A stretch of DNA of 44,108 nt from a virus, in UHGV virus genome UHGV-0106768. One strand, 5' to 3'. How positions within the stretch are numbered: the first letter of the stretch is position 1; each line of letters begins with the position of its first letter. A model generated the notes under the pieces. It worked only from the letters and a program-made list of their open reading frames with translations. It did not search any database and was not told the origin of the DNA. Shown in pieces: positions 2,645 through 29,506 of the stretch. A program made the translations under genes and the position numbers.

Positions 2645-2650
2645 TGAGTG

Positions 2651-2671: not shown

Positions 2672-2674
2672 ATT

Positions 2675-3397
2675 ATGGAAAACGTGAATGTTCAGAATGC
2701 TGCCGCTATTACCGATCAGACCACACTCGGAGAACTGCTTGCAATGCTTGACCTCGCTGATAAGGCAGGCAAGATGCCGACACCGAGAGAACTGTTTGAG
2801 ACCGCCGGTGAGACGATTGCCGACATGAACGGCTGCACGCTCTTCAGCAACGGGTTCGCTGTCTACCAGAATATCACCGGACGTACTGTTGTCTGGCTGC
2901 CTTACTGTAAGAGCTTCACCTATTACTTCGGCAAGCTCCGTGATTCCGAGAAAGACACGCTGACAGAGACCTATGAGCTGCCGGATGGATTTCTGGAAAC
3001 ACAGCCGTGGGTGATCGCAGTAACACTGATCGGCGACCATCGTGTGGAGGCAAACAGCATGAACCGCACCGGCAGCCGCAAGGATACCACAGATTATGAC
3101 AGCGCCGATAACGGCGATAAAGACGGTGATGCAGAGGAGGCTTTGGCAGATCCGTATCGCAGGGCATTCAACTGGTATGACGGACGCATGGGCGAGAATC
3201 CGCAGGATGCCGTGGAGCGCAGAGAGACACGCGAGGAGATGCTTGCAGACATGACGGACAAGCAGCGTGAAGCCTTTATTATGTACTTCAGGGATGGTAT
3301 GACGCAGGAAGAGATTGCTTCATATATAGGGGTAAGCCGTGATTCCATAAATGACAGGCTTGAAGGTGCATTGAAAAAAGCAAAAAAATATTTTTGA
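2675..3397 (+). CDS. Sigma-70 region-4-like HTH regulator (sigma-factor-like protein of the kind seen in Clostridial ICEs and phages)
   Basis: The C-terminus DKQREAFIMYFRDGMTQEEIASYIGVSRDSINDRLEGALKKAKKYF matches the region-4 HTH pattern. The start is taken at ATG 2675 after AAGGAA. The track ORF starts at GTG 2648. Confidence 0.7.
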   Translation: MENVNVQNAAAITDQTTLGELLAMLDLADKAGKMPTPRELFETAGETIADMNGCTLFSNGFAVYQNITGRTVVWLPYCKSFTYYFGKLRDSEKDTLTETYELPDGFLETQPWVIAVTLIGDHRVEANSMNRTGSRKDTTDYDSADNGDKDGDAEEALADPYRRAFNWYDGRMGENPQDAVERRETREEMLADMTDKQREAFIMYFRDGMTQEEIASYIGVSRDSINDRLEGALKKAKKYF

Positions 3398-6327: not shown

Positions 6328-9213
6328 GTGGTGATTTTATTGAGCAGACGTGTACTTTCTATCGACCTTGAGACCTACAGCGATGTTGACCTTCCGAACT
6401 GCGGTGTGTACCGCTATGTTGAGGGGGATTTTCATATCCTGCTGTTCGCATATGCATTCGATGATGAAGAAACAAAGTGTATCGACATGGCCTGCGGTGA
6501 ACAGCTTCCCGCAGAGGTTGTGGATGCCATACACAATGAAAATATCATCAAATCTGCGTGGAATGCGCAGTTTGAGCGCATCTGTCTGTCAAAATATCTC
6601 GGCATCAGGCTTTCTCCGGACTCGTGGCAATGCACGATGGTATGGGCGGCATCGCTGTCCCTGCCGCTGAAGCTGGCAACGGCAGCACAGGCTTTGAAAA
6701 CTGCACAGCAGAAAGACAGTGTCGGTGAACGGCTGATCCGCTACTTTTCGATTCCGTGTAAGCCTACCAAATCTAACGGCGGTCGCACACGCAATCTGCC
6801 GGAACACGCTCCGGAGGACTGGGCGCTGTTCAAAAGCTACTGTATTCAGGATGTGGAAACGGAACGGGATATCCGCCGAAGACTTGAAAAGTTTCCGCTG
6901 ATGCCGCAGGAATGGGATTTTTATCACATGGATCAGCGGATCAATGACCGCGGCATCCTGATCGACAGAGAGCTTGTGCAGCAGGCAATTATCTGTAATA
7001 TGGCAATGTCTGAGGAGATGACCAAACGCGCCTATGCACTGACGGGACTTGAAAATCCCAATTCTGTATCTCAGCTGAAGTCATGGCTGGAAGATCGCGG
7101 CATCGAGGTGGATTCCCTCGGCAAAAAGAATGTCGCTTCTCTGATCACAGACCTTGACAAGCACAGTGCGGACGGTGAAGCTCTGGATATGATGAAGCTG
7201 CGGTTGCAGATGGCAAAGTCCTCTGTGAAAAAGTATCAGGCGGCAGAGAGATACATCTGTCAGGACGGCAGGGCGCACGGACTGTTTCAGTTTTCCGGAG
7301 CTCAGCGAACACAGCGCTGGTGTCTTACCGGCGATCATGAAATACTGACAGATAAAGGCTGGCTCAGGCTTGATAATTGGCAGGGCGGTAAGATTGCTTG
7401 TTGGAATCCTAATCAGGAAATGGTCTCGTTCCAGAAAGCGAACGTATTGTGCTTTGAATATGACGGTCCTATCTACCGCTATGAGGACAAACGGATCGAT
7501 CAGATCAGCACGCCGGATCACAAAATGCGTGTAAAGAAACGGTATAACGGCGAGTGGACGGATGACACTGTTGGCAATATGGAAAAGTATCGTCCTTCTA
7601 TTCCGTTTACCGGACGCAGACAAACGATGCCCGGCTTGGAGCACGCAGAACTGAGGGTACTGGTGATGACGCAGGCTGACGGCAGCTATAAAGAAGATGG
7701 AATGCTCTGCTTCCATTTCAAGAAGAAAAGGAAAATAGAACGGTGCAAACATCTGCTCAGACAGGCGGGCATTTATTTCACAGTGAATGAATGCAGGACA
7801 GATGGAACAACGCAGATCAAGATTCCTTCCCGTGAGCAGCCGATGTATCTAAGAATGTTTCATAACAAGACATTTGGAATGTGGCTTCTCGATGAAAGCC
7901 CGGATGTTTTCTTTGATGAGCTTCGGTATTGGGACGGATCGCAAAGCGCCAAAAACAGTATCCAATATACCACAACGAACAAAGTGAATGCCGATATTGT
8001 TCAGGCTTTTGCTCATACAAGTGGTCGCTGTGCAAAAATGAAACCGGTCATCCGGGATAAAGAACACCCGAATTGGAGCGATGCATACTATCTCGATATA
8101 TGGCTCACTCCGAAAAACTGTCATGAAATCAGAGTGAAGCCGACTATCTCGCAATTCAGCGGCAAAATATACTGTGCTGAAACCCCAACCGGATACTTCC
8201 TTGTAAGACGTAATGGTAAAGTGTGGGTAACAGGAAACAGCGGGCGCGGCATTCAATTACAGAACCTGCCGCAGAACCACATCTCTACCCTCGATGAAGC
8301 AAGAGAACTTGTCAAAATGGGCTGCTTTGACATGATCGAAGCACTGTACGGCAATACGCCGGATATCCTGTCACAGCTTATCCGCACGATGCTCATTCCG
8401 AAGGACGGCTGTGAATTTATCGTGGCAGACTTCTCCGCCATTGAAGCGAGAGTACTTGCGTGGCTTGCCGGAGAACAGTGGCGGCTCGATGCCTTCAAGC
8501 GTGGCGAGGATATTTACTGTGCATCCGCATCGCAAATGTTCGGTGTTCCGGTCGTGAAGCACGGCATCAACGGTGAACTGCGGCAGAAAGGCAAGGTCGC
8601 AGAATTGGCCTGCGGTTACGGCGGCGGTGCCGGTGCGCTGATCTCAATGGGCGCACTGGATATGGGACTGAAAGAGGACGAACTTCCCGACATCATTTCA
8701 AGCTGGCGCGACGCAAACCCGGAGATCGTGAAATTCTGGTATGCTGTGGAAAAAGCCGCGATTGAAACAGTCAAGGATCACAATGACAGATCGGTCGGCC
8801 GGATCGGATTTCAGTTTTCAGCAAATACACTGTGGATCGTTCTTCCGTCCGGACGCAGGCTTGCCTACATCAAACCGAGATTACAGCCGAACCGCTTCGG
8901 GCGTATGGCACTGACATTTGAGGGGCTTGGTGCAAACAACAAGTGGGTGCGCGGCGAAACCTATTCCGGCAAGCTGACAGAGAACATCACACAGGCAACT
9001 GCCCGTGATCTCCTTGCAGAAGCAATGCGCCGTATAGAACTTGCAGGGCTTGGAATCGTCGGGCATGTGCATGATGAGGTCATTCTCGAAGTGCCGAAAG
9101 GACAATACACGGTCGATGATGTATGCAGCATCATGAATCAGAATCCGAAATGGGCGGAGGACTTACCGTTGTCAAGTGCAGGATATACGGGTGCATGGTA
9201 CTACAAAGATTAA
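6328..9213 (+). CDS. Family A DNA polymerase with 3'-5' exonuclease domain, interrupted by an intein
   Basis: Exo I SIDLETYSD, RT(Q)RW...SGRGIQLQNLPQ, motif A IVADFSAIEARVLAWL, motif C HVHDEV. The true start may be TTG 6340. Confidence 0.9.
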   Translation: MVILLSRRVLSIDLETYSDVDLPNCGVYRYVEGDFHILLFAYAFDDEETKCIDMACGEQLPAEVVDAIHNENIIKSAWNAQFERICLSKYLGIRLSPDSWQCTMVWAASLSLPLKLATAAQALKTAQQKDSVGERLIRYFSIPCKPTKSNGGRTRNLPEHAPEDWALFKSYCIQDVETERDIRRRLEKFPLMPQEWDFYHMDQRINDRGILIDRELVQQAIICNMAMSEEMTKRAYALTGLENPNSVSQLKSWLEDRGIEVDSLGKKNVASLITDLDKHSADGEALDMMKLRLQMAKSSVKKYQAAERYICQDGRAHGLFQFSGAQRTQRWCLTGDHEILTDKGWLRLDNWQGGKIACWNPNQEMVSFQKANVLCFEYDGPIYRYEDKRIDQISTPDHKMRVKKRYNGEWTDDTVGNMEKYRPSIPFTGRRQTMPGLEHAELRVLVMTQADGSYKEDGMLCFHFKKKRKIERCKHLLRQAGIYFTVNECRTDGTTQIKIPSREQPMYLRMFHNKTFGMWLLDESPDVFFDELRYWDGSQSAKNSIQYTTTNKVNADIVQAFAHTSGRCAKMKPVIRDKEHPNWSDAYYLDIWLTPKNCHEIRVKPTISQFSGKIYCAETPTGYFLVRRNGKVWVTGNSGRGIQLQNLPQNHISTLDEARELVKMGCFDMIEALYGNTPDILSQLIRTMLIPKDGCEFIVADFSAIEARVLAWLAGEQWRLDAFKRGEDIYCASASQMFGVPVVKHGINGELRQKGKVAELACGYGGGAGALISMGALDMGLKEDELPDIISSWRDANPEIVKFWYAVEKAAIETVKDHNDRSVGRIGFQFSANTLWIVLPSGRRLAYIKPRLQPNRFGRMALTFEGLGANNKWVRGETYSGKLTENITQATARDLLAEAMRRIELAGLGIVGHVHDEVILEVPKGQYTVDDVCSIMNQNPKWAEDLPLSSAGYTGAWYYKD
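7321..8238 (+). mobile_element. Class-1-type intein with LAGLIDADG homing-endonuclease domain inside the DNA polymerase
   Basis: Starts CLTGDHEILT and ends VWVTGN followed by Ser. Block B is TPDH. LAGLIDADG-like motifs LRVLVMTQADGS and FFDELRYWDGS. Removing it restores GAQRTQRW-SGRGIQLQNLP. Confidence 0.85.
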
Positions 9214-12806: not shown

Positions 12807-12902
12807 CAATATACAGTCTGTATGATCCACCCCTTATTGACGACAGGAAGACGGCAAAGCGGCGACAATTCGGTTACGCCGCAAACCACGGAGGTGAAAA
12901 CT

Positions 12903-13388
12903 ATGGCTCGTAAGAACAAACGCCTAAAAACAGAATACCACAGAGGGCTCGGCTTTGATCCGAGAAAATATATTACGGCACCGGTGCAGCACCACACCAT
13001 CGCTCACAAGCCGCAGCGCGGTGACATCTGGTTTGCGGATCTTGGCTGTCATCCGGATTCCAGCGTGCAGAGCGGCATCCGTCCGGTTATCATTCTCTCG
13101 AATGATATGGGCAATGCACACGCCGACACGGTCAATATCATTCCCATGACGCGGCATCTGAAAAAGCCGGAGCTGCCGTGCCATACGCATCTGTTCCCCG
13201 ACAGTATTTCCGATCTTCATCAGCATCTATATCCGTCCATGATCCTGGCGGAGCAGCTCACGACTGTCAGCAAGCATGCGCTTCGCAGCTATGCCGGACA
13301 TATCTCGGACGCCGATGCGATGAACCGTATTGAAACCGCTGTCATTGCACAGCTTTTCATTGAAAGGAGACATTCCGAATGCCTGTAA
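12903..13388 (+). CDS. PemK/MazF-fold toxin-like protein
   Basis: GGAGGTG RBS. PQRGDIWFADLG...SGIRPVIILSNDMGN...VNIIPMT matches the PemK/MazF core. No antitoxin-like ORF is adjacent. Confidence 0.65.
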   Translation: MARKNKRLKTEYHRGLGFDPRKYITAPVQHHTIAHKPQRGDIWFADLGCHPDSSVQSGIRPVIILSNDMGNAHADTVNIIPMTRHLKKPELPCHTHLFPDSISDLHQHLYPSMILAEQLTTVSKHALRSYAGHISDADAMNRIETAVIAQLFIERRHSECL

Positions 13389-15808
13389 ATTTCGTAAATA
13401 TCCCGGACGCACTGAAGCAGTCGGCATCCTTCTGTGTCTGGAAGCTGGAAAAGAGATCCGGACGCCCCACAAAAGTGCCGTACAATCCGAGAACCGGCAA
13501 CATGGCAAAAACCAACGAGCCGGACACCTTCACCGACTTCAAGACCGCTATGAAAGCGTATGCGATTGGCGGCTGGAACGGCATCGGCTACAGAGTTTCC
13601 GAGGGAATCGGTGCAATCGACATCGACCACTGTATCCGGGAGGACGGCAGCCTGAATGATGTGGCAGCATCCATTCTCGGTATCTTCAGCACTGCCTACT
13701 TTGAACGCTCTCCATCCGGCACCGGACTGCGCGGCTTCTTCAAACTCAGCCCTGAGTTTGCCTACGATAAGACTGTGTACTACATCAACAACCGCAAACA
13801 CGGTCTGGAGGTCTATCTGCCCGGAACGACCAACCGCTTTGTAACTGTTACGGGAGATATGTTCCGTCCCGGTACCGTTGAGCGTGATGATGATGCACTC
13901 CGCAATCTGCTTGACACCTTCATGAAGCGCAGCACCCGTGTATCAAATAAGACGATCGAGCCTGCATCCTATCTTGATGACGAGGGTGTCATCGCACACG
14001 CATTCGCCTCTGCTTCTGGTGATAAATTCAAAGCACTCTACGAGGGACACTGGGAGGAAGGCTATGATTCGCAGTCTGATGCAGACATGGCGTTCGTGTC
14101 CATGCTGTGCTTCTGGTGCGGCAATGTGGAGGAGCAGATCGACCGTATCTTCCGAACTTCCGGTCTGATGCGTGATAAGTGGGATCGTATGACCGGTGAC
14201 AGGACCTACGGTCAGATCACGATCCGCAATGCCATCGCATCGACATCCGAGATCTATACACCTATTGCGGACTCCTCCGCAGAGGATGATTTTGAAGATA
14301 TTGAGGGCGAGACAGATACAGAGCAGCTGATGTTTGAGCCGGATTTCACCCACATCACCCTGACGCTGGAACAGATGCAGCCGCACACAAATCCTCGCTA
14401 TCAGCGTGACGAGATCGGTATTGGCTATGCATTTGCGGATTACTATAAGCCAATCGCTCATTTCGACCGTGAGCGCGGTATCTGGTATGTCTTTGACGGG
14501 AAGGTGTGGCAGCCGGACGAAAATGCTCTCGCTGTGGCGGAGATTGCAAAGCGTCTGGCAGACAGGCTGTATACCTTCGCCCTTCAGATCAAGGATGAGG
14601 ATACTCGAAACAGGTATATCAAGCGTGTACAGAAGCTCCAACTCCGCAAAAACCGCCGCACCATGATCGAAGATGCGAAATCCGTGTATCCAGTGCCGCA
14701 CGCTATCTTTGACCGCAATACCGATCTGTTCAACAGTCAGAACGGCACGCTGAACCTCACCACAGGTGAATTCCGTCCGCACGATCCGGCAGACTTTCTC
14801 ACCATGATGTCCGGTGTCACCTATGATCCGAATGCCACCTGTCCGAGATGGGAGCAGTTCATTTCCGAAGTTATGTGTAACGATGCTGACCTCGCATTAT
14901 ACTTGCAAAAAGCCCTCGGATATGCGCTTACCGGCGACACATCGCTCGAATGCCTGTTCATCCTCTACGGTGCGACCTCCCGAAACGGAAAAGGCACCAC
15001 AATGGAGACATTTCTGAAGATCATGGGTGATTACGGCAAAACCTCCAATCCGGAGATGCTGTCTACAAAATTCGGCAACACCAATGCGTCCGGACCGTCT
15101 GAGGAGATTGCTCGCCTTGCGGGTGTGCGTTTCGTTAATATCTCCGAGCCGGAGAAGAAGATCACCTTCAATGCAGCACTGGTAAAGCGTATGACGGGTA
15201 ACGATACACTGAATGCTCGTTTTCTGCATGAGAACAGCTTCGATTTCAAGCCGAATTTCAAGATCTTCATCAATACGAATTACAAACCGTCCGTTTCTGA
15301 TATGACACTGTTTTACTCCAACCGTCTGAAGCTCATTCCGTTCAAACGCCATTTTGAGGAGCATGAGCAGGACAAAGGTCTGAAAGCATTTTTCAGTACG
15401 GATGTCTGCCTCTCTGCCATCTTTAACTGGTGCTATGAAGGATATAAGCGGTTTCGTTCCGAAGGTCTGGAGGATCCGGCTGCTGTTTCTCAGGCAACCA
15501 AGGAGTATCAGGAGGAGTCTGACCGCATCGGTCAGTTTGTGGATGCATGGCTCGAAGAAGGCGAAGCATTTGAAGTTCGTACCTCTGCGGCATATAAGCT
15601 GTACGGTGAATGGTGCGATAAGTATGGCTACCGCAAGGAGAACAGCACCAACTTCAATAATGCGATTCAGCGTTTCTTCCCCATCGTGCGTAAGCGTCCG
15701 AACGATACAAAGGGTGCGCAGAAAACAACAATGCTTGTGGGGTGCCGTTTCCTGGATCATGAAAACGGCGAAGCTGACGAACCGGATGAGTTTGCTGCCT
15801 TGGAGTAA
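13379..15808 (+). CDS. Bifunctional primase-polymerase / D5-P4-type primase-helicase
   Basis: N-terminal prim-pol (GIGAIDIDHC), PriCT-like SDADMAFVSMLCFWCG, and Walker A ILYGATSRNGKGT of phage/plasmid P4-family primases. Confidence 0.85.
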   Translation: MPVNFVNIPDALKQSASFCVWKLEKRSGRPTKVPYNPRTGNMAKTNEPDTFTDFKTAMKAYAIGGWNGIGYRVSEGIGAIDIDHCIREDGSLNDVAASILGIFSTAYFERSPSGTGLRGFFKLSPEFAYDKTVYYINNRKHGLEVYLPGTTNRFVTVTGDMFRPGTVERDDDALRNLLDTFMKRSTRVSNKTIEPASYLDDEGVIAHAFASASGDKFKALYEGHWEEGYDSQSDADMAFVSMLCFWCGNVEEQIDRIFRTSGLMRDKWDRMTGDRTYGQITIRNAIASTSEIYTPIADSSAEDDFEDIEGETDTEQLMFEPDFTHITLTLEQMQPHTNPRYQRDEIGIGYAFADYYKPIAHFDRERGIWYVFDGKVWQPDENALAVAEIAKRLADRLYTFALQIKDEDTRNRYIKRVQKLQLRKNRRTMIEDAKSVYPVPHAIFDRNTDLFNSQNGTLNLTTGEFRPHDPADFLTMMSGVTYDPNATCPRWEQFISEVMCNDADLALYLQKALGYALTGDTSLECLFILYGATSRNGKGTTMETFLKIMGDYGKTSNPEMLSTKFGNTNASGPSEEIARLAGVRFVNISEPEKKITFNAALVKRMTGNDTLNARFLHENSFDFKPNFKIFINTNYKPSVSDMTLFYSNRLKLIPFKRHFEEHEQDKGLKAFFSTDVCLSAIFNWCYEGYKRFRSEGLEDPAAVSQATKEYQEESDRIGQFVDAWLEEGEAFEVRTSAAYKLYGEWCDKYGYRKENSTNFNNAIQRFFPIVRKRPNDTKGAQKTTMLVGCRFLDHENGEADEPDEFAALE

Positions 15809-15846
15809 AAGTAGACTTTTCTCCGTATTTGCGCTGTTTTCCGCAG

Positions 15847-15938
15847 TTGGGGCAACGTGGGGCAAGTTTTTTCGGTGGTTATTATTATTACTTCTCTTTA
15901 TATATATTACTATTTTTACTTGCCCCTACTTGCCCCAA
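15847..15938. repeat. 21-nt inverted repeat flanking a 50-nt AT-rich spacer; candidate origin core
   Basis: TTGGGGCAACGTGGGGCAAGT (15847-67) versus the reverse complement of ACTTGCCCCTACTTGCCCCAA (15918-38). The spacer is TTTTTCGGTGGTTATTATTATTACTTCTCTTTATATATATTACTATTTTT. Confidence 0.5.
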
Positions 15939-16114
15939 ATAAATAAAAACAATAGAAAAGATAAGAAGAATAGAGGATTTTCACTGATTTGAACCATTAC
16001 CCATTTTGCACTGTTTTGAACCTTGCCCGATGCTGTCACTGACAAAGAGTGTGTAAGCGACAAAGCGTGGCAAGGTCAAAATCCAACGATCAATCATGCA
16101 GGAGGAACAAGAAT

Positions 16115-17209
16115 ATGAGAATCATCACTTCAGAACAGGTATCCGCAGGACACCCCGACAAGATCTGTGACCAGATCGCAGATGCTATCGTGACCGACTG
16201 CCTGCAGCATGACCACAACAGCCGTGTCGCCATCGAGTGCCTTTTCAAGAACCGCTTCCTTGTGATCGCCGGTGAACTGACCAGCACCCATGAGCCCGAC
16301 TACAAGGCACTGGTGCAGAGCGTGTTTGACCGCATCAACAACGGCGGAGCAGAGAGTACCGATGCAGGTTTTGATTACAAGCTGGATTTCACAGCCGATG
16401 ATCTGGACATTGCGATTCTGGTCGATCACCAGAGTAGCGACATTGCCCTCGGTGTGAATACCGGCGGTGCAGGAGATCAGGGTATGATGTACGGCTATGC
16501 GACCAACGAAACGCCGGAGATGCTCCCGATCCCCTTCGTGCTGGCTACCAGATTTCTGGAACTGCTGAAAGCCTACCCCTGCCGTATGCTGAAAGCCGAC
16601 GCAAAGGCACAGGTCAGCTATGACTATGACAGCGGTCGCATTACCACCTTCCTCTGCTCGGTGCAGCATACACACGATGTGGATGTTGAGGACTTCAAGC
16701 CCATCATCGAAAAGCTGATGGTGAGAACGGCAACCGAATACGGGCTGAATACAGACTTTGCAAAGCTCGTCAACCCGACCGGCAGATTTGTCATAGGCAG
16801 TTCCTTTGCGGACTGCGGCGTTACCGGACGCAAGCTCGCCTGCGATACCTATGGCGGTATCGGGCATATCGGCGGCGGTGCAATGTCCGGCAAAGATCCG
16901 TCTAAGGTTGACCGCAGCGGCGCATATGCAGCAAGAAAAATCGCAAGGGATATCGTCAGTGCCGGATATGCGGATATGGCAGAGGTGCAGATCGCATATG
17001 CCATCGGCGTGGCAGAACCCGTATCCGTGTATGTGGAAACCTTCGGCACGGAGCATCAGGATACGGAGTTCATCAGCCAGTATGTCCGTGAGAACTACGA
17101 CCTGACACCGAGAGGTATCATTGAAGGACTGCATTTGCTGGATGTGGACTACAACGCTGTTTCCGCATACGGACACTTCGGAAAACAGAACCTTCCGTGG
17201 GAACTATAA
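16115..17209 (+). CDS. metK: S-adenosylmethionine synthetase
   Basis: GGAGGA RBS. SAGHPDKICDQIADAI, GAGDQGMMYGYA and GGGAMSGKDPSKVDRSGAY motifs. Confidence 0.9.
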   Translation: MRIITSEQVSAGHPDKICDQIADAIVTDCLQHDHNSRVAIECLFKNRFLVIAGELTSTHEPDYKALVQSVFDRINNGGAESTDAGFDYKLDFTADDLDIAILVDHQSSDIALGVNTGGAGDQGMMYGYATNETPEMLPIPFVLATRFLELLKAYPCRMLKADAKAQVSYDYDSGRITTFLCSVQHTHDVDVEDFKPIIEKLMVRTATEYGLNTDFAKLVNPTGRFVIGSSFADCGVTGRKLACDTYGGIGHIGGGAMSGKDPSKVDRSGAYAARKIARDIVSAGYADMAEVQIAYAIGVAEPVSVYVETFGTEHQDTEFISQYVRENYDLTPRGIIEGLHLLDVDYNAVSAYGHFGKQNLPWEL

Positions 17210-18915: not shown

Positions 18916-19397
18916 CGCTGACTGAGAACTTCATTCAGAATGCCATCCATCTCGATGCGGGTGCGGAGGTCATGTACGGCAGCGATCAGATGTACGACAC
19001 CTACCCTTGCCGTTTTCCGGCTGTGGAGTTTCAACTTATGGCAACGGATGCTCTTGTTGAGGTTGCAGACCGCATCCGCATGGAGAAGGGCTACCTTCCG
19101 ATGCATCCGAGAGACGGCAAGACAGACGATGTGGACTGCGATGGTTTCTATGATTTTTATGTCGGGATTTCAAAGCTCCCCGGCGACCATCAGCAGTGCC
19201 AGCTTGACAGCAGCATCAGCTTTATGGTTGTCAATTCGGATTCGGATGACAACGAGGATATGTACAATATCGACTTGACAGAAGCAGAACGGGAATATGT
19301 GTATGAGATACTGAACCGACAGTGCCGGAGGTATCACGGCAAGGACTGCGCCGAACTTCTGGCAGAGTCTGAAAAGGAGCTGATGGATACAGCATGA
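18912..19397 (+). CDS. Hypothetical protein
   Basis: ATGA-type overlaps with both neighbours. 161-aa ORF. Confidence 0.55.
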   Translation: MTLTENFIQNAIHLDAGAEVMYGSDQMYDTYPCRFPAVEFQLMATDALVEVADRIRMEKGYLPMHPRDGKTDDVDCDGFYDFYVGISKLPGDHQQCQLDSSISFMVVNSDSDDNEDMYNIDLTEAEREYVYEILNRQCRRYHGKDCAELLAESEKELMDTA

Positions 19398-21541
19398 GAA
19401 TTATCAAGCGAAACGGCGCAGAGGTGCCGTATGACTGTGAAAAGATCAGAGCCGCAATTACTGCGGCAAACGATGAGATGGATTCCGGCGACAGGATCAC
19501 AGATACAGTAATCGGCTTTATTGCTGGTAATGTAGAAAAGCGATGTGAGGCACTTGCAAGGCCTGTCCATGTCGAAGAAGTCCAGGACATGGTTCTTGAT
19601 GAACTGGACAGGGCCGAAGCGTACAAACTTGCACGGCACTACAGCGAGTACCGCCTGCGTCATGAACAGCAGCGCCGGATGAACACAACGGACGGCAAGA
19701 TTCTCAGTCTCCTTGAGAGGAACAACGAGGAGGCAAAACAGGAGAACGCCAACAAGAACCCGATCATCAACAGCACGCTCCGTGACTATATGGCGGGGGA
19801 GGTCAGCCGAGACATCTGCCGCCGATTCCTGTTTCCCGAAGATGTAATCGCTGCCCACGATGACGGCATCATTCATGTACACGATCTGGACTACATCGCA
19901 GAGCCGATGCATAACTGCTGTCTGGTGAATCTGGAGGATATGCTTCAGAACGGCACAGTGGTATCCGGTACTATAATTGAGAAGCCGCACAGCTTTTCGA
20001 CTGCCTGCAATATCGCAACGCAGATCATTGCACAGGTCGCCTCGAATCAGTACGGTGGACAGACCGTCAGCCTTGCACATCTTGCACCTTTCGTGGATGT
20101 GAGCAGAAAAAAGATCCGCACCGAGGTGTTCGAGGATGTGAACTGCGACTGCGGTGCAAAGCTGTCTGAAAAAGAACTGGACTACATCGTAGAAAAGCGT
20201 GTGCGACGGGAGGTCAAGCGTGGCGTGCAGACGATACAGTATCAGATCAACACGCTGCTCACTACCAACGGACAGACGCCGTTCGTCACAGTGTTTATGT
20301 ATCTTGATGAAGTGCCGGAGGGACAGACCCGTGATGACCTTGCGCTCATCATCGAGGAAACACTGCTTCAGCGTATCGAGGGTGTGAAAAACGAAAAGGG
20401 CATCTGGATCACACCGGCATTTCCGAAGCTGATCTATGTTCTTGATGAGGATAACATTCAGCCCGGTTCCAAGTATTACTATCTCACCGAGCTTGCCGCC
20501 AAGTGTACTGCAAAGCGCATGGTTCCCGACTATATTTCCGCAAAGGTGATGAAACGTCTGAAGGGTGATGTGTATGCCTGCATGGGCTGCCGATCTTTCC
20601 TGACACCTTCGGATGACCACAAATACTACGGGCGATTCAATCAGGGAGTCATCACGATCAACCTTGTGGATGTTGCGTGTAGCGCAGGCGGAGACGAAGA
20701 TAAATGCTGGCAGCTTCTTGATGAACGCTGCGAACTGTGCCGCAAAGCGCTTGTGTGTCGGCATGACCGCCTGAAAGGGACACCGTCCGATGTTGCACCA
20801 ATCCTCTGGCAGTATGGCGCACTTGCGAGACTGAAGAACGGCGAGGTCATTGACGATCTGCTGTATAACAACTACAGCACGATCTCGCTCGGCTATGCCG
20901 GCATCGCGGAAATGACCTATCACATGACAGGCCGTTCGCATACAGAGCCAGAAGGAAAAGCGTTTGCACTGAAGGTCATGCGATTCCTGAACGATAAGTG
21001 CAGCAAATGGAGAGCTGAAAGCAATATCTCGTTCTCGCTGTACGGCACGCCGATGGAGAGCGTCACCTACAAATTTGCACAATGTTTGCAGCGCAGACAC
21101 GGCATCATTCCTCATGTGACCGACAAGAGCTATATCACCAACAGCTATCATGTCCATGTGACTGAGCCGATCGATGCCTTCAGCAAGCTAATTTTTGAGG
21201 CAGAGTTTCAGGAGCTTTCTCCGGGCGGTGCGATCAGTTATGTGGAAGTACCGAATCTGCAAAACAATATCCCTGCAGTGCTGGTGCTCATGAGACACAT
21301 CTACGAAACGATTCTGTACGCCGAACTGAATACCAAGTCCGATTACTGTCAGGCTTGCGGCTATGACGGCGAGATCGGGATCGTGGAAGAAGACGGCAAG
21401 CTGATCTGGGAATGTCCGAACTGCGGCAACCGCGATCAGCGAACACTGAATGTCTGCCGCCGCACCTGCGGTTACCTCGGAACGCAGTTCTGGAATCAGG
21501 GACGCACTGCTGAGATCAAGGATCGGGTGATGCACCTGTGA
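19394..21541 (+). CDS. nrdD: Anaerobic ribonucleoside-triphosphate reductase
   Basis: N-terminal ATP-cone (MRIIKRNGAEVPYDCEKI), C-terminal CxxC...CPNCG zinc site, and glycyl-radical motif RRTCGYLG. Confidence 0.92.
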   Translation: MRIIKRNGAEVPYDCEKIRAAITAANDEMDSGDRITDTVIGFIAGNVEKRCEALARPVHVEEVQDMVLDELDRAEAYKLARHYSEYRLRHEQQRRMNTTDGKILSLLERNNEEAKQENANKNPIINSTLRDYMAGEVSRDICRRFLFPEDVIAAHDDGIIHVHDLDYIAEPMHNCCLVNLEDMLQNGTVVSGTIIEKPHSFSTACNIATQIIAQVASNQYGGQTVSLAHLAPFVDVSRKKIRTEVFEDVNCDCGAKLSEKELDYIVEKRVRREVKRGVQTIQYQINTLLTTNGQTPFVTVFMYLDEVPEGQTRDDLALIIEETLLQRIEGVKNEKGIWITPAFPKLIYVLDEDNIQPGSKYYYLTELAAKCTAKRMVPDYISAKVMKRLKGDVYACMGCRSFLTPSDDHKYYGRFNQGVITINLVDVACSAGGDEDKCWQLLDERCELCRKALVCRHDRLKGTPSDVAPILWQYGALARLKNGEVIDDLLYNNYSTISLGYAGIAEMTYHMTGRSHTEPEGKAFALKVMRFLNDKCSKWRAESNISFSLYGTPMESVTYKFAQCLQRRHGIIPHVTDKSYITNSYHVHVTEPIDAFSKLIFEAEFQELSPGGAISYVEVPNLQNNIPAVLVLMRHIYETILYAELNTKSDYCQACGYDGEIGIVEEDGKLIWECPNCGNRDQRTLNVCRRTCGYLGTQFWNQGRTAEIKDRVMHL

Positions 21542-22005: not shown

Positions 22006-22319
22006 GAGCCAGACTGAAACCGCCGGGAGATGCCGTTCGCTGCGATGCCTGCGGATGTGCCTTTGTGCCGGAGCCGAAAATGCAGCGTGAGGGCGAGATC
22101 GAATACAGCTTCTTCAACTGTGATTACTGTGGCAAAGCGTATATCGTGTCTGTGACCGATGCCGCACTCCGCCGGAGCATCCGCAAGTACCGGACGCTTG
22201 CCGAAAAGCTGAAGGACAAGCCGCTGAGTGAAGAAACGCTCCGTGAAGTCACGGCGCTGAAGGATGCGAACACAAAAAGAGCCGCAGAGCTGCGGCAGAT
22301 GTATATACGGGAGGGATGA
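22002..22319 (+). CDS. Hypothetical zinc-ribbon protein
   Basis: CDACGCAF...CDYCGKAY pairs. ATGA overlap with nrdG. Confidence 0.55.
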   Translation: MRARLKPPGDAVRCDACGCAFVPEPKMQREGEIEYSFFNCDYCGKAYIVSVTDAALRRSIRKYRTLAEKLKDKPLSEETLREVTALKDANTKRAAELRQMYIREG

Positions 22320-22320
22320 G

Positions 22321-23592
22321 ATGAAAACAGCAGAACTTCGCATGATCCCTGTCTCGGAACTGAAGCCTGCGGAATACAACCCGCGTAAAAAGCTGAAGCC
22401 CGGCGACAAGGAATACGAGAAGATCAAAAACAGCATCGAGGAATTCGGTTTTGCCGACCCTTTGGTAGTCAACGCCGATATGACCATCATCGGCGGACAT
22501 CAGAGACTGACCGTAGCGATGGCGCTCGGCTACACGGAAGTTCCGTGTGCGGTGGTAGACATCGACAAGGTTCGTGAGAAGGCACTGAACATCGCACTGA
22601 ACAAGATCACGGGTGCGTGGGACGAGAACCTTCTTGCTGAACTTCTGGAGGATATTCAGAACAGTGATTTCGATCTTGGCAAGACCGGCTTTGACCCGCC
22701 GGAGATCGAGCAGCTTTTCAATCAGGTACACGATAAGCAGGTCAAAGAGGACAGCTTCGATGTGGAGGAGGAGCTTCAGAAACCGACCTTCTCTCAGCCG
22801 GGAGATACCTGGATCCTCGGCAGGCACAGAGTCATCTGCGGCGACAGCACAGTTGCGGAGACATACACAAAGCTGATGGACGGACAGAAAGCAAATCTCG
22901 TCCTGACGGACCCGCCTTACAATGTGGATGTTGAGGAGACCGCCGGCAAGATCATGAACGATAACATGAGCGACAGCGATTTCTACAACTTCCTGCTTGC
23001 CGCCTATAAGTGTATGTATGACAGTCTTGCCGATGACGGCAGCATCTATGTATGGCACGCCGACACCGAGGGGCTGAATTTCAGAAAGGCATTCAAGGAC
23101 GCAGGATTCCAGCTTTCCGGCTGCTGTATCTGGAAGAAGAATTCGCTGGTGCTCGGGCGCAGTCCTTACCAGTGGATCCATGAACCGTGCCTGTTCGGCT
23201 GGAAGCAGAAGGGCAAGCATCAGTGGTACGCCGACCGCAAGCAGACGACCGTCTGGGAATACGACAAGCCGAAAAGCAGTCCCGATCATCCGACCACAAA
23301 GCCCATCCCGCTGATGGCGTACCCGATCAAGAACAGCACCATGACAAACGGCATCGTCCTCGATCCATTTCTCGGCTCTGGCTCTACGCTGATCGCCTGC
23401 TGTGAGACAGACCGTGTCTGCCGGGGCATCGAGCTTGACCCGAAGTTCGTGGATGTCATCGTGAAACGTTACCTCGCATGGTGTCAGGAGAAGCAGACCG
23501 CAGAGGTCGCATATGTTCTCCGTGACGGCCAGAAGCTGTCATACGAGGAAGCGATTGCAGTAATGCCGCAGGACGGTGATGCTGTTGAGTGA
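22321..23592 (+). CDS. ParB-like nuclease domain fused to an N6/N4 DNA methyltransferase
   Basis: N-terminal ParB/Srx pattern (IPVSELKPAEYNPRK...IIGGHQRL). LVLTDPPYNVD motif IV. C-terminal DPFLGSGST motif I. Confidence 0.88.
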   Translation: MKTAELRMIPVSELKPAEYNPRKKLKPGDKEYEKIKNSIEEFGFADPLVVNADMTIIGGHQRLTVAMALGYTEVPCAVVDIDKVREKALNIALNKITGAWDENLLAELLEDIQNSDFDLGKTGFDPPEIEQLFNQVHDKQVKEDSFDVEEELQKPTFSQPGDTWILGRHRVICGDSTVAETYTKLMDGQKANLVLTDPPYNVDVEETAGKIMNDNMSDSDFYNFLLAAYKCMYDSLADDGSIYVWHADTEGLNFRKAFKDAGFQLSGCCIWKKNSLVLGRSPYQWIHEPCLFGWKQKGKHQWYADRKQTTVWEYDKPKSSPDHPTTKPIPLMAYPIKNSTMTNGIVLDPFLGSGSTLIACCETDRVCRGIELDPKFVDVIVKRYLAWCQEKQTAEVAYVLRDGQKLSYEEAIAVMPQDGDAVE

Positions 23593-24352: not shown

Positions 24353-24594
24353 CGAAACAGGAATGTGCCATCGTGACAGCGTACACAGGGTTCGCTATGC
24401 TGAAGGGCAGCGACCTGAAATATCTGTACAATTATCTCTCCGGTCTCATCGGCAGGCCGGTGTATTCACACGAGATCCCTGCGGTCGCAGAAGCCTGCAA
24501 GGAACAAATACGAGAAGATTTCCTTGCCCTGTGCAGGAACGCAAAGGAGGCGGATGATGGATCATACAACAATGACGCTCGGCAGTCTGTTTGA
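24349..24594 (+). CDS. Hypothetical protein
   Basis: ATGA overlap with the upstream gene. 81-aa ORF. Confidence 0.5.
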   Translation: MTKQECAIVTAYTGFAMLKGSDLKYLYNYLSGLIGRPVYSHEIPAVAEACKEQIREDFLALCRNAKEADDGSYNNDARQSV

Positions 24595-26848
24595 CGGCTC
24601 CGGGGGCTTTCCGCTTGGTGGCATCCTCGCAGGGATCGAGCCAAGGTGGAGCAGCGAAATTGAACCTTTTCCGGTGCTTGTCACGCACAAGCGGCTGCCG
24701 CAGGTGCAGCACTACGGTGATGTATCTACGCTGAACGGCGCAGAGCTTCCGCCGGTGGATATCATCACCTTAGGCAGTCCTTGTCAGGACCTGTCTATTG
24801 CGGGCAAGCGTGCCGGAATCCATGACGGTGATCGGTCGAACCTGTTCTTTCAGGCGATCCGCATCATCAAAGAAATGAGGGATGCAACAAATGGACGATA
24901 TCCGCGATACTGCGTCTGGGAAAATGTCCCCGGCGCTTTCTCATCCAACGGAGGAAACGACTTCAAGGCTGTCCTCGAAGCAGTTATCGGAGTTAAAGAA
25001 AAAGGGATCGAGGTGCCTGCGCCTGAAAATCACAGATGGGCAAAATCAGACGTATATCTGGGAGACGGATGGAGCGTGGCTTACCGAGTTTTCGATGCTC
25101 AATACTGGGGTGTCCCCCAACGCAGAGCAAGAATCTACCTTGTCGCAGATTTTGCTGGCGAAAGTGCCGGAGAAATACTATTTAAGTCCGAAGGCGTGTC
25201 TTGGTATACTCCGCAGGGCTTCCGTGCGTGGCAAGGAGCTGCCGGAGGTGCTGAAGAAGGCACTGGAGAAACAGGCGGGCGGTCTGACGCTGGAGGTGGA
25301 ACCCTCTGCCTGAATACACAGGGCAACAGCGGCGTCGGCATCACCGAGGACAAGGCTCTCGCACTGGTCGCACAGGATCACGGGAATCATCCTGCCGTTC
25401 TTGCCGCAGGTTTTTCCACAGAGCATAGTGCAAAAGCACGCAGCATCGGATACGAGGAGGAAGTCTCCCCGACACTGAGAGCAGGTGTTGTTCCTGCGGC
25501 ACTCTCGGTCGAAAACCATCCGACAGACGGTCGTGTGAAGATCCGTGAGGACGACACCTGCCAGACACTTTGCAGCAGAGCCGGGACGGGCGGCAACAAT
25601 GTACCGCTTGTCGCTGAACCGATCACGCTGAAAATCAGGTCAGGCTGCGAAGGCGGCGGCAAGGGCGCTCTCTGGCAAACTGATAAATCTGCTACGCTTG
25701 CTACCAACAACAACCAGACACTCTTTCAGCCAGAGATCAAAGCCTTCGGTGTATGTAGCAAGCATTCCAATGCGATGATGTCAGACAATCCGCACAGTGG
25801 CTTTTACGAAGCGACCACGAGCAGAACGCTTGACCAGAGCGGTGGAAACTCCGTAACATCGAATCAGGGCGGCATCTGCGTGGTAGCACCTGCGCCGGAG
25901 ACATTCGATGTGCGTTTCACATCGGACGGCACGAAAAATGCTCGTGGGCATTGTTACCCGACAGACATTTCCCGATGCCTTGATACGAGCGAGGGATCGC
26001 CAGACTCGAATCACGGCGGTGTCGCTGTGGTGGCTCTTGAACCGGGGGCTGCATCACGTGTCGGCGGTCATGTGTACAGTGACGGCAAAAGCGGTACGCT
26101 TCGAGCCAATGCCGGCGATAATCAGCAGGCTGTTGTGGTCGCCGAGCCGGAGACCTATGCTCTGCAAGGCTCGATGATCGGTCGTGCCGACAAGAACGGT
26201 CCGCAGGGTGACGGCATCAATGAGGATGTGTGCTTTACGCTCAATACTTCAGACAGGCACGCTATTGCCGCACCCGATCCGTCTTTCACGATTTCCCGTG
26301 ACAATCACTTCGCCGTTTCGGAAGATATATCTGTTACGGCAGTTGCGAGAGGTCCTGCAACGGTCGCAGCCCCGGCAGATCACTACTGCACAAGCAAGAA
26401 TTCACACCACACGGTCGCTGTGCATGAGCAGGCAAACACGCTGGTCGCATCCGACTGGAAGGATCCGCCGCTTGTGAACGACCTTCCGAATGACGAGCCG
26501 GTATATATCGTAAGAAGGCTGACTCCGGTGGAGTGCGCCAGATTGCAGGGATTCCCGGACTGGTGGTGTGCCGACCTTGCGATTCCTGATCCTTCTGACG
26601 AGGAGATCGCCTTCTGGATGGAAGTATGGGAAACTTGGAGACAGATCACAAATCCCAAGGGCAAACCGAAAACGGAAAAGCAGATCCGCAAATGGCTGGC
26701 TAATCCGTACACGGACAGTGCCGAGTACAAGTTATGGGGCAACGGTGTCTCAGAGCCCGTTGTGTTCTTCGTGCTATCCGGCATTGCCTGGGCGGCACAG
26801 AATTCTGAAACTAATGCAGCAAATTGTGAACATTCTGATACTATGTAA
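24554..26848 (+). CDS. dcm: DNA (cytosine-5) methyltransferase with a variable region of about 450 aa made of tandem TRD-like repeats (probably multispecific)
   Basis: Motif I LFDGSGG, IV GSPCQDLS, VI WENVPG, VIII QRRARIYLVADF, IX RRLTPVECARLQGFP, X GNGVSEPV. AAGGAGG RBS before ATG 24554. Confidence 0.9.
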   Translation: MMDHTTMTLGSLFDGSGGFPLGGILAGIEPRWSSEIEPFPVLVTHKRLPQVQHYGDVSTLNGAELPPVDIITLGSPCQDLSIAGKRAGIHDGDRSNLFFQAIRIIKEMRDATNGRYPRYCVWENVPGAFSSNGGNDFKAVLEAVIGVKEKGIEVPAPENHRWAKSDVYLGDGWSVAYRVFDAQYWGVPQRRARIYLVADFAGESAGEILFKSEGVSWYTPQGFRAWQGAAGGAEEGTGETGGRSDAGGGTLCLNTQGNSGVGITEDKALALVAQDHGNHPAVLAAGFSTEHSAKARSIGYEEEVSPTLRAGVVPAALSVENHPTDGRVKIREDDTCQTLCSRAGTGGNNVPLVAEPITLKIRSGCEGGGKGALWQTDKSATLATNNNQTLFQPEIKAFGVCSKHSNAMMSDNPHSGFYEATTSRTLDQSGGNSVTSNQGGICVVAPAPETFDVRFTSDGTKNARGHCYPTDISRCLDTSEGSPDSNHGGVAVVALEPGAASRVGGHVYSDGKSGTLRANAGDNQQAVVVAEPETYALQGSMIGRADKNGPQGDGINEDVCFTLNTSDRHAIAAPDPSFTISRDNHFAVSEDISVTAVARGPATVAAPADHYCTSKNSHHTVAVHEQANTLVASDWKDPPLVNDLPNDEPVYIVRRLTPVECARLQGFPDWWCADLAIPDPSDEEIAFWMEVWETWRQITNPKGKPKTEKQIRKWLANPYTDSAEYKLWGNGVSEPVVFFVLSGIAWAAQNSETNAANCEHSDTM

Positions 26849-27010: not shown

Positions 27011-28132
27011 ATGAAAACTTATGCAATGATCATTGGAAACCGCAAGGAACTCACAAAGAGAATCGAGGCACTCACCGGAGAGCGCAGCGTATACACCTTC
27101 ATGCCGAGATGCGCCTATGAGATCGGGGCATTCGCAGTCGAGAAGGACGGCACACTTACGGCACAGGACGATGCCGACCAGAGCGTGATCGACACCCTGA
27201 GAGCCGAGGGTATGATCGGTGGTGAGATCATCGCAGAGAGCATCAAGGCAGTCGAGCCGGAGCAGACCGATGAGACCGCAGAGCCGGAACAGCCTGCACC
27301 GCCCGTAAGCACCGATGAATGGGACGATGATGAGGATGACGACGATGAGAACAGCGTCGAGGGCGAGAATGCGGAAGCGGAAGAGCCGGAGGAGTCCGAA
27401 GAAAATGCCGATAAGTCGGAGCCTTCCGCAGAGCCAGAAGCCGCACCTCCTGCGACCGAGGATGCCTGGGATGATGAACCGGAGGATGAACCCGGCGACG
27501 AGCCGGAAGAAACCACCGAGCTTCCTGAACCGCTGACCGCAGAGATCAGCTTCCCGCTGAGCCATCACACGGTGCAGAGCCTTACAAACCTCATCTGCAT
27601 GATCCACTCCCGCGGCGCACTTCTCAGCAAGGCAACCGGCGGACAGTTTTACGCTGACAAGAGCCTCGCCGATGCGATCCTCGATGACAAGACCTTCCGC
27701 AGCATTCACGAGCTGATCGCCTACATCAGAGAATGGGAGGAGACGAATCCTGAACTGAAGGGCATCCGCTTCGCCGATGACAAGCTAATCTTTGACGGCT
27801 TCGGTGCAGCGCAGGATGCCGAAACGGTGCAGACCTTCACCAAGCTCGCCACAGCCATGAACAGGATGGCGATCACGCAGAAACGTGTGCAGGCAAAGGA
27901 TGTCGATGACAGCAACGAAAAGTACGCACTCCGCATCTGGCTGATCCGCCTTGGGCTGAACGGCGCAGACTGCAAGGTTGACCGCAAGCGCCTCATGGCT
28001 CCGCTTTCCGGACACACCGCATTCCGCAACGATGCGGAGCGTGTGCGCTGGGAGGCAAAGCAAAAGGCAAAGCGTGATGCTGCCAGAACCGAACTGACCG
28101 AGGAGGATGAAAACGATGCAGTTTCCGAATGA
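27011..28132 (+). CDS. Hypothetical protein with an acidic low-complexity region of about 90 aa and an amidoligase-like C-terminal tail
   Basis: 373-aa ORF. Acidic tract EPEQTDETAEPEQ...DDDEDDDDENSVEGENAEAEEPEESEE. The C-terminus EKYALRIWLIRLGLNG...LSGHTAFR parallels KKFAMRTWLMRMGFIG...LTGDNSFR of the neighbouring amidoligase. Confidence 0.6.
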   Translation: MKTYAMIIGNRKELTKRIEALTGERSVYTFMPRCAYEIGAFAVEKDGTLTAQDDADQSVIDTLRAEGMIGGEIIAESIKAVEPEQTDETAEPEQPAPPVSTDEWDDDEDDDDENSVEGENAEAEEPEESEENADKSEPSAEPEAAPPATEDAWDDEPEDEPGDEPEETTELPEPLTAEISFPLSHHTVQSLTNLICMIHSRGALLSKATGGQFYADKSLADAILDDKTFRSIHELIAYIREWEETNPELKGIRFADDKLIFDGFGAAQDAETVQTFTKLATAMNRMAITQKRVQAKDVDDSNEKYALRIWLIRLGLNGADCKVDRKRLMAPLSGHTAFRNDAERVRWEAKQKAKRDAARTELTEEDENDAVSE

Positions 28133-28364
28133 AAGACAGCTCAGAGCCTTGCGGGAGCGTTATCCCGCAGGAACCCGCATCCGACTGAAGCATATGGATG
28201 ACCCTTATGCACCCGTACCGCCCGGCACGGTCGGAGAGGTTCAGATGGTCGATGACGGCGGCAACATACACATGGTCTGGGAGAATGGCAGAACGCTCTC
28301 CCTTATAGACGGTGTCGATGATTTCCAAGTCATTTCTGACCGCAATGGGGGCTCCGGAAAATAA
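28116..28364 (+). CDS. DUF4314 domain protein
   Basis: GAGGAGGA RBS. RYPAGTRIRLKHMDDPYAPVPPGTVGEVQMVDDGGNIHMVWENGRTLSL is the DUF4314 pattern. Confidence 0.7.
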   Translation: MQFPNERQLRALRERYPAGTRIRLKHMDDPYAPVPPGTVGEVQMVDDGGNIHMVWENGRTLSLIDGVDDFQVISDRNGGSGK

Positions 28365-28477
28365 GAGATCCTATTCCATTGTATCCGAGTATACCATAGA
28401 ATTTCAAGTATATCAAGTGTACACATACACCAGATATGAGCAATGTATTTTCCTCGATATTCTGTGGTTTTAGCGGC

Positions 28478-28506
28478 TTGCTATATCCTCCGAAAGACGG
28501 TAACAT
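28478..28506 (+). promoter_or_regulatory. Cassette promoter 2: TTGCTA-17-TAACAT
   Basis: Exact 17-nt spacer. Leader hairpin GGGC-AAAC-GCCC at 28521-28532. GGAGG RBS. Confidence 0.7.
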
Positions 28507-28561
28507 GTGACACAACGGAAGGGCAAACGCCCACCGAAAAACCGAATCGGAGGATACCAAA

Positions 28562-29506
28562 ATGACTGAGAAAACCGCACAGCAGATCAACAGAATGAAG
28601 GAGCAGACCATCGGGGTTGAGATCGAGATGAACAACATCACCCGCAAGGCTGCCGCAAAGCTCGCCGCCAACTTCTTCGGCACCAGCCGCACCGAGTACA
28701 CCGCACACCGCAACGGCTACGAAACCTACAGCGCATGGGATGCACAGGGCAGAGAGTGGAAATTCCAGAAGGACGTCAGCATCGCAGGCCCCGACAGCGA
28801 AAAGTGCGAACTGGTCACACCGATCCTGCACTACGCAGACATCGAAACCCTGCAGGAGCTTGTGAGAAGGCTCAGAAAGGCAGGAGCGCGCAGTGATTAC
28901 ACGCGGGGATGTGGAGTCCACTGCCACATTGGAGCCCAGGGACACACACCGCAGACCTTGAGAAACCTCGCAAACCTGATGGCAAGCCACGAAACCCTGA
29001 TCGCCGAGGCAATCAGAGTAGACCAGAGCAGAATGCGCCGCTACTGCAGAACAGTTGACCCGAGATTCCTTGAACAGCTCAACCGCAAAAAGCCCACCAC
29101 GATGGCACAGCTTGCGGACATCTGGTACGGCGCACAGGGCTGCGAATACGGCAGAACCCACCACTACAACGACAGCCGCTATCACATGCTCAACCTCCAC
29201 GCTACCTTCACCAAAGGCACGGTCGAGTTCAGACTTTTCCAGTTCGCACCGCCTTCCAACGGCAAGCAGAACGGGCTCCACGCAGGCAAGCTCAAGAGCT
29301 ACATTCAGCTCTGCCTCGCAATGAGCCAGATGGCAAAGGACCTGCGGAGCGCCAGCCCCAAGGAACAGCAGAAGGAAAACAAAAAGTTCGCCATGCGGAC
29401 TTGGCTGATGAGAATGGGATTCATCGGGGACGAATTCGCAACCGCAAGGGAAACCCTCACCGAGAACCTTACAGGCGACAACAGCTTCCGCTTCGGCAGA
29501 CCTTAA
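28562..29506 (+). CDS. Amidoligase (glutamine-synthetase-like COOH-NH2 ligase family of phages and ICEs)
   Basis: N-terminus TIGVEIEMNNITRKAAAKLAANFFG and the core CGVHCHIG...GTVEFRLFQ match my recollection of the 'putative amidoligase enzyme' family. Confidence 0.7.
   Translation: MTEKTAQQINRMKEQTIGVEIEMNNITRKAAAKLAANFFGTSRTEYTAHRNGYETYSAWDAQGREWKFQKDVSIAGPDSEKCELVTPILHYADIETLQELVRRLRKAGARSDYTRGCGVHCHIGAQGHTPQTLRNLANLMASHETLIAEAIRVDQSRMRRYCRTVDPRFLEQLNRKKPTTMAQLADIWYGAQGCEYGRTHHYNDSRYHMLNLHATFTKGTVEFRLFQFAPPSNGKQNGLHAGKLKSYIQLCLAMSQMAKDLRSASPKEQQKENKKFAMRTWLMRMGFIGDEFATARETLTENLTGDNSFRFGRP

Follow-up and report, generated by a model that had tools for sequence, protein, structure and literature searches.

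A candidate replication origin of convergent iterons beside a PrimPol-helicase gene in an uncultured Ruminococcus/Oscillospiraceae phage lineage

The window analyzed here is the whole 44,108-nucleotide stretch of the viral genome UHGV-0106768. Just past a primase-helicase gene (13379-15808), it carries two pairs of short repeats that converge on an AT-rich spacer (15847-15938). Judging from the sequence, this element is very probably the core of the phage replication origin (ori), with the product of 13379-15808 as its initiator. A preliminary description of the window had proposed this reading, pointing to iterons and an unwinding element beside an initiator helicase gene, and it is now supported by homology of the protein to the replication protein PriRep5, by a geometry conserved among relatives, and by co-variation between the repeat units and residues of a predicted wing in the protein. 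To these our computations add the anatomy of the element itself and the co-variation of its four units with one another. From homology with the Rep/PriRep proteins of Staphylococcus aureus pathogenicity islands (SaPIs) and from the comparative evidence, we infer origin function, and with it initiator binding, melting, loading of a double hexamer, and bidirectional initiation.

The two 21-nt arms, TTGGGGCAACGTGGGGCAAGT at 15847-15867 (plus strand) and ACTTGCCCCTACTTGCCCCAA at 15918-15938 (minus strand), are complementary at 18 of 21 positions and separated by 50 nt of AT-rich DNA (15868-15917, 18% GC), exactly as the preliminary description had reported. Its view of each arm as a tandem of a GGGGCAA(G/C)-type unit is likewise borne out, with two units per arm at a 10-bp period and the units of opposite arms converging on the spacer. 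The left arm consists of two TGGGGCAA(G) units at 15848-15855 and 15858-15865, and it is conserved in position and co-varies among relatives; the right arm contains AGGGGCAAG at 15919-15927 (with AGGGGCAA at 15920-15927) and TGGGGCAA at 15930-15937, both facing the spacer. The element thus holds four units of about 8-10 bp, two per side in opposite orientation. The spacer, presumed to be the DNA-unwinding element, includes a T-run and a GGTGGTTA patch at 15874-15881. Next to the right arm lies an A/purine-rich tract (15939-15977, AAATAAATAAAAACAATAGAAAAGATAAGAAGAATAGAGG) that is kept as ..AGAAAAGATAAGAAGAATAGGG.. across iteron classes.

The left arm begins 39 nt 3' of the primase-helicase stop codon, in a gap of 306 nt (15809-16114) before the next gene. 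No open reading frame (ORF) of more than 45 aa lies wholly inside this gap; two longer listed frames merely extend into it, one out of frame over the primase 3' end and the other antisense to the primase, so the earlier statement that no credible ORF covers the region stands. The claim that this is the most AT-rich stretch of the window does not, because over 200 nt the segment 15864-16063 (33% GC) comes second to 2104-2303 (29% GC). The window contains six copies of TGGGGCAA against 1.59 expected, a count that none of 100 shuffles attained, and three of the six fall inside 90 nt at the iteron locus. We also scanned all 44 kb for a 2+2 pattern, defined as a unit occurring twice at 9-11 bp and followed 25-100 nt on by its reverse complement, again twice. 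The iteron locus was the sole match, in four consecutive registers; single-register matches arose in 3 of 20 Markov-simulated windows.

The primase-helicase (809 aa; 13379-15808, plus strand) comprises an archaeo-eukaryotic primase (AEP)-type primase-polymerase (PrimPol), a helix-bundle domain, a D5/superfamily 3 (SF3) helicase, and a C-terminal Pox_D5/winged-helix domain. Its Pfam matches are NrS1-1_pol-like_HBD, D5_N, a C-terminal Pox_D5 and, weakly, RFX_DNA_binding, and the P4-family primase C-terminal model TIGR01613 matches aa 451-759 with 234 bits (cut-off 108.7). Among PDB entries, PriRep5 of SaPI5 (7OLA; PMC9371898) matches best, with E 1.4e-39 and alignments spanning aa 5-318 and 450-767. 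The second of these segments takes in helices of the C-terminal domain. The entries 6K9A and 6A9W are also matched, at E ~1e-35.

In SaPI origins the iterons lie directly downstream of rep, at least two per side in opposite directions around an AT-rich center; the C-terminal winged helix recognizes the iterons, and the working model has one self-loading hexamer per side (PMC9371898). The window shares much with this Rep-PriRep module of SaPIs and other phage-inducible chromosomal islands (PICIs), including a self-loading SF3 helicase with a C-terminal winged helix (predicted here), the primase fusion seen in PriRep5, and direct sequence homology to that protein. The ori follows directly 3' of the initiator ORF in both, with at least two opposed iterons on either flank of the AT-rich center, and iteron specificity varies among related elements while matching the cognate initiator, a match that in our case consists of computational co-variation. 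The layout itself is therefore already known in kind. The two differ in that the carrier here is not a satellite island but a full tailed phage that encodes terminase, portal, and capsid proteins; the units are 8-9 bp long at a 9-10-bp period rather than 5-6 nt; the window has 4 units in place of the 6-12 of SaPIs; and the hosts are Ruminococcus and other Oscillospiraceae. Because the window matches every sequence-level feature of a SaPI ori and its initiator is homologous, the pair would be expected to work like a SaPI/PICI Rep-ori module.

The same geometry is found downstream of the same gene in about 50 relatives drawn from IMG/VR and GTDB. Our comparative set consisted of 48 IMG/VR loci encoding primase relatives, with 26 distinct loci sharing the architecture. 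Their common order is a pair of units with a 9-10-bp period, then an AT-rich spacer, then a pair of inverted units, and most of the 26 also have a purine-rich tract past the right arm. Of the 26 spacers, 22 measure 49-51 bp and the longest is 58 bp, and all are 75-88% AT; an alignment of 15 loci reveals a conserved spacer core, TTTATATATATTACT. An exact-pattern scan of IMG/VR with the left arm of the window gave no match, the relatives deviating from it at one or two positions. The ori lies 36-315 nt from the stop codon in the relatives, the exception being locus L014, where two minus-strand genes (6486-7238 and 7090-7797, within L014:6412-7980) are inserted between the primase stop and the ori and displace the latter by 1.5 kb. 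Minus-strand gene insertions at this place were seen in L063 and L069 as well. A search with the primase returned 3199 homologues, all at least 88% identical among the matches listed, and no primase of a cultured phage is more than ~32% identical to the 809-aa protein. The GTDB carriers of relatives are Ruminococcus, other Oscillospiraceae, and Lachnospiraceae, among them the cultured R. flavefaciens 007c (L062).

Between relatives, the centers of the units switch jointly in all four units, giving GGGG, GTAG, GTCG, GTTG, and other classes (the unit variants across loci are TGGGGCA, TGTAGCA, TGTCGCA, TGTTGCA, TGGGGAG, TGGGAAA, and TGTAAAA). Arm complementarity in the 15-locus alignment is 91.9%. 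Double-change cells number 32 compared with 10.8 in shuffles, none of 500 shuffles being as high, and all of them fall at two central positions per unit. Both units of one arm co-vary in 14 of the 15 aligned loci, and direct copies of the unit without an inverted partner occur in four loci (L006, L022, L038, and L104). A protein that binds the unit explains both the co-variation within an arm and the unpaired extra copies, whereas an RNA or DNA stem explains neither.

Some relatives carry additional features around this core. Extra direct iteron copies, from 3 to 8 or more, lie upstream of the core 2+2 arrangement in several loci (GTGGCA repeats at L104:385-900; also L038, L027, L020, and L022), an arrangement that resembles the variable iteron number of SaPI origins. 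One clade (L023, L024, L040, and L021 from IMG/VR; L057, L062, and L066 from GTDB) has TGTAGCAA arms with a 9-bp period that are shifted relative to the AT-rich tracts. In this clade, a pyrimidine-rich half precedes the left arm and a purine-rich half lies between the arms.

The iteron type is tracked by two residues of the initiator, 780 and 782, within the predicted wing loop at aa 775-782 (NDTKGAQK; codons at 15701-15724, plus strand). We compared 15 primases, 80-98% identical over aa 1-700, and calculated for each column the normalized mutual information with iteron class. Out of 809 columns, only aa 780 and 782 reached 1.0; column 778 was next best, and 775, 777, and 781 were also inside the top twelve. 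At positions 780/782, A/K goes with the GGGG class, G/P with GTAG, and S/Q with GTCG. A larger tally of about 57 loci, taken from IMG/VR, an independent GTDB genome set, and five look-ups picked by wing sequence alone, connects residue 782 with the fourth base of the unit: lysine with G (21 of 21), glutamine with C (7 of 7), proline, methionine, or leucine with A (21 of 21), and valine or cysteine with T (3 of 3). The independent GTDB set and the five look-ups fit this same relation.

With respect to the protein backbone, iteron class is polyphyletic: L036 (GGGG) and L006 (GTAG) are 97% identical, as are L011 (GTAG) and L012 (GTCG), which indicates repeated switching of specificity. The ori cores of L011 and L012 are near-identical, differing by the same A-to-C change in all four units, and the wing codons of the two loci have changed too. 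Physical linkage does not explain the co-variation, since the C-terminal tail (aa 799-809), which is encoded nearer to the ori than the wing, shows no tracking of iteron class, and since in L014, with its ori 1.5 kb from the gene, the wing SGGP still fits the TGTAGCA units (7891-7980).

Residues 775-782 are predicted to lie where the wing of a C-terminal winged helix would be. In a low-confidence AlphaFold2 (AF2) model of the last 159 aa (pLDDT 58, and <50 in the loop), the confident part consists of three helices followed by two short strands, and these residues occupy the loop between the two strands after helix 3. For the model, Foldseek returned no significant match; its top-ranking hits were origin-bound Orc1/Cdc6 winged helices, the DNA-binding domain of RFX, and the African swine fever virus (ASFV) primase-helicase. 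A phmmer search of the PDB with the isolated C-terminal domain found nothing, and a profile search gave only a weak match to PriRep5. The RFX domain reads the major groove by its wing, which would fit. We propose, tentatively and as one possibility, that the wing reads the iteron by a near one-to-one rule between amino acid and base (residue 782 with the fourth base of TG-N-N-GCA: K-G, Q-C, P/M/L-A, and V/C-T) and that phages in nature change their replicon specificity by substituting one or two residues of the wing and, in step, a single base of each of the four iterons. Such a near one-to-one correlation, and the repeated natural switching of specificity, may be new; to our knowledge, a one-residue/one-base wing correlation has not been described for SaPIs.

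A mechanism can be outlined for the proposed origin. The C-terminal winged-helix domains of the PrimPol-SF3 helicase would read the TGGGGCAA(G) units, with the wing loop around K782 contacting the variable center of the unit. Spaced by one helical turn, both units of an arm present the same face of the DNA, and each arm would nucleate one hexamer. Held a constant 50 bp apart by the convergent arms, the two hexamers would melt the AT-rich spacer, each encircling one strand and traveling outwards; the N-terminal PrimPol domain would prime, and the phage family-A polymerase (6328-9213) would extend.

Several points weigh against this interpretation or against its wing component. The residue-base counts are not phylogenetically independent, with only 3-4 clearly independent switches on near-identical backbones, and alanine at 782 is ambiguous, occurring with T at two loci and with A at two others. 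Placement of the wing relies on the low-confidence AF2 model (pLDDT 58) and on fold matches that are not significant (best E 0.14). Cumulative GC skew, a check suggested in the preliminary description, climbs almost monotonically with no inflection at 15.9 kb; as all genes are co-oriented, a missing inflection is expected, and the skew neither supports nor contradicts an origin. In principle, moreover, a site bound by the initiator could be a regulatory operator only. On that account the C-terminal domain or some other DNA-binding protein would act at the iterons to regulate the metK operon or to autoregulate, and replication would not start there. The position of the site between two co-oriented genes, 5' of a conserved leader hairpin and a ribosome-binding site (RBS), agrees with such a role, initiators of iteron plasmids often autoregulate at their iterons, and the wing co-variation shows binding specificity rather than initiation. 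We consider an operator alone improbable nonetheless, as our scan of 15809-16114 found no sigma-70-like promoter, the spacer that the convergent arms enclose, strictly conserved at 50 bp and ~80% AT, suits a melting element rather than an operator, the remaining domains of the protein are a primase and a replicative helicase, and the homologous SaPI module of the same layout is an experimentally established ori (PMC9371898).

The arms might instead act as a hairpin in RNA or single-stranded DNA, serving as a terminator, processing site, or stabilizer at the end of the primase transcript. They do give a stable RNA stem, with a minimum free energy (MFE) of -44.5 kcal/mol for 15809-15975 (z = -3.6), and compensatory changes maintain their complementarity. 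A stem, however, needs no identity of the units within an arm, yet these co-vary in nearly all aligned loci; nor does it call for the unpaired direct copies or for units that co-vary with a protein loop, and its loop would measure 50 nt. Bidirectional termination, named in the preliminary description as one of two outcomes that would count against an origin, is not supported, and an intrinsic terminator was rejected: the gap has no GC-rich, short-loop stem with a U-tract, no U-tract follows the stem on either strand (AAATAAA follows instead), and the scan of the gap was empty of terminator-like sites. Rfam 15 gave no match in the window at gathering thresholds and only chance-level matches in 15700-16250 (E at least 0.12). 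These findings leave a hairpin function very unlikely, and we give as little credence to a pac, parS, or recombination site used by another phage protein, such as the small terminase or the ParB_N-methyltransferase (22264-23592). Repeats around AT-rich DNA occur at such sites too, and a ParB_N-domain protein is encoded in the window. In all relatives, however, the site stays by the primase gene and not by the terminase or ParB genes, its specificity follows the primase wing, and ParB_N-methyltransferase fusions are DNA methylases, not partition proteins. An origin served by the neighboring primase-helicase therefore remains our preferred reading.

Other replication systems resemble this pair in part. 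The N-terminal PrimPol and helix-bundle domain are homologous to those of NrS-1, as the NrS1-1_pol-like_HBD, 6K9A, and 6A9W matches show, and both proteins have an SF3 helicase and a C-terminal domain; for the NrS-1 helicase, origin recognition by the C-terminal domain is unaddressed (PMC9371898). The NrS-1 primase recognizes 5'-TTTGGTTA-3' or 5'-GTG(A/G)-3' (PMC8718748), and the spacer motif GGTGGTTA (15874-15881) resembles these sites, a mere lead given that the GTG is not conserved among relatives.

The alpha protein of satellite phage P4 combines a primase and SF3 helicase with a C-terminal winged helix for iteron binding in one polypeptide and acts on two separated iteron clusters, ori and crr. 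The window protein shares the P4-family primase C-terminal region (TIGR01613). It differs in having an AEP PrimPol of the NrS-1 type as its primase domain, and the window has a single cluster; the 2+2 scan found no second, crr-like one, and outside the ori only three isolated copies of TGGGGCAA occur in 44 kb, about the number expected by chance. Lambdoid O-protein origins lie inside the initiator gene, whereas the units in the window are all located 3' of the initiator stop codon.

More distant phages that have been cultured show comparable gaps. In Bacillus phi105 (L107:3360-3474), Listeria PSA (L106:3254-3339), and Staphylococcus phiSP119-3 (L108:3210-3480), a non-coding gap of 240-290 nt directly follows a ~31% identical P4-family primase gene and contains inverted iterons around an AT-rich core (the phi105 arms are GTTACTTTTGTTACTT ... 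AGTAACAAAAGTAACAAG). The unit sequences differ from those in the window, and the spacers are longer (PSA, 64 bp; phi105, 81 bp). The records of these three phages annotate no rep_origin, and we found no paper mapping an origin there; judged by their sequences, the gaps are likely to be unrecognized origins of the same type. A literature search on the Sfi21 origin returned nothing relevant.

Our assignment places a replication origin on an uncultured lineage of Ruminococcus/Oscillospiraceae phages and suggests a simple search rule for locating origins in the thousands of phages and prophages related to it in gut and rumen: 2+2 convergent repeats ~50 bp apart are sought just past a P4-family/PrimPol-helicase gene. 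The natural specificity switches on near-identical backbones amount to ready-made mutagenesis and point to two wing residues as readers of the iteron center in SF3 self-loading helicases. If the relation between residue and base is true, the origin specificity of SF3 initiators from this widespread family could become predictable and open to re-engineering, and competition or incompatibility among co-resident phages and satellites may drive the switching. A defined pair of ori and initiator could also seed replicons for genetically intractable Clostridia.

Beyond the purine-rich tract lie further repeats that the preliminary description had listed as short direct repeats. All are real as repeats, but they are not extra iterons of the same specificity, a possibility we rejected because they do not change with iteron class and because one of them is single-copy in some close relatives. 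This latter repeat, a 27-nt tandem of two copies with 78% identity (15978-16004 and 16005-16031, plus strand), includes the TTTGAACCATTACCC / TTTGAACCTTGCCC pair as a portion of TTTGAACC.../TTTGAACC... and is variable among relatives. It is present in L004, has a divergent upstream TTTGA(A/G)CCATT motif in L006, L007, L035, and L036, and is single-copy in L001, L005, and L016. A separate, conserved element that forms a hairpin (16014-16081, plus strand; TTTTGAACCTTGCC ... GGCAAGGTCAAAA) contains the GACAAAGAGTGTG / GACAAAGCGTGGC repeats, which have an 18-nt period, as well as the CCTTGCC/GGCAAGG pair; it encloses the two GACAAAG repeats and does not follow iteron type.

Both the window copy of this element and its counterparts in nearly all relatives form a long hairpin on folding; of five RNA MFE folds, four have z-scores of -2.1 to -4.1, and the fifth, that of L027, has -0.8. 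Within one clade, a trimmed alignment gives a three-tier consensus hairpin of 20 pairs, 3 of them compensatory, with little covariation; RNAalifold found no consensus over 13 diverse leaders, for which the alignment was poor. The element is conserved whatever the next gene is and has no Rfam match. A recurring promoter was rejected, as the nhmmer profile finds a single occurrence in the window and the exact motifs are unique. A riboswitch for S-adenosylmethionine (SAM) or another known RNA upstream of metK was rejected too, with no Rfam match at gathering or permissive E-values. The element may act as structured leader RNA or as a signal in single-stranded DNA, and it could represent an undescribed origin-associated single-strand priming signal or leader RNA.

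The window comes from a tailed phage. Its genes all lie on the plus strand and include those for the large terminase, the portal, and the major head protein. Its replication block encodes a DUF2800 nuclease, an Enc34-type single-stranded DNA-binding protein, the family-A polymerase, a DUF932 protein, an SNF2 helicase, a MazF-like protein, and the 809-aa protein. The gene for the MazF/PemK-like toxin-domain protein (188 aa, 12822-13388) directly precedes that for the primase-helicase, with a 10-nt overlap at the start of the latter.

The most AT-rich part of the window, 2040-2340, was tried as a competing origin and rejected, since it lacks tandem iterons and holds instead a pair of terminator-like hairpins and a single long inverted repeat. 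The hairpins lie at 2047-2066 and 2097-2115, and the inverted repeat (24 nt, 2101-2124 / 2231-2254) surrounds 106 nt. With a helix-turn-helix gene (1134-2033) on one side and a sigma-70 region-4 gene (2648-3397) on the other, this is probably an early regulatory or switch region.

Downstream of the ori, the first gene (16115-17209, plus strand) encodes an S-adenosylmethionine synthetase, MetK (Pfam S-AdoMet_synt N/M/C), preceded by the RBS AGGAGGA at 16100-16106. It is one of a series of auxiliary genes (16115-17209, 19394-21541, 22264-23592, 24524-26848, and 27011-29506) whose products include MetK, an anaerobic ribonucleotide reductase (NrdD), the ParB_N-DNA methylase fusion, a 774-aa DNA methyltransferase, and two amidoligase-like proteins. 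The presence of MetK beside several methylases suggests a phage that supplies SAM for modifying its own DNA. Farther on, the large terminase (888 aa, 35466-38132) is matched by terminase profiles in two separate stretches, aa ~78-321 and 439-878, and may carry an insertion or an extra N-terminal domain.

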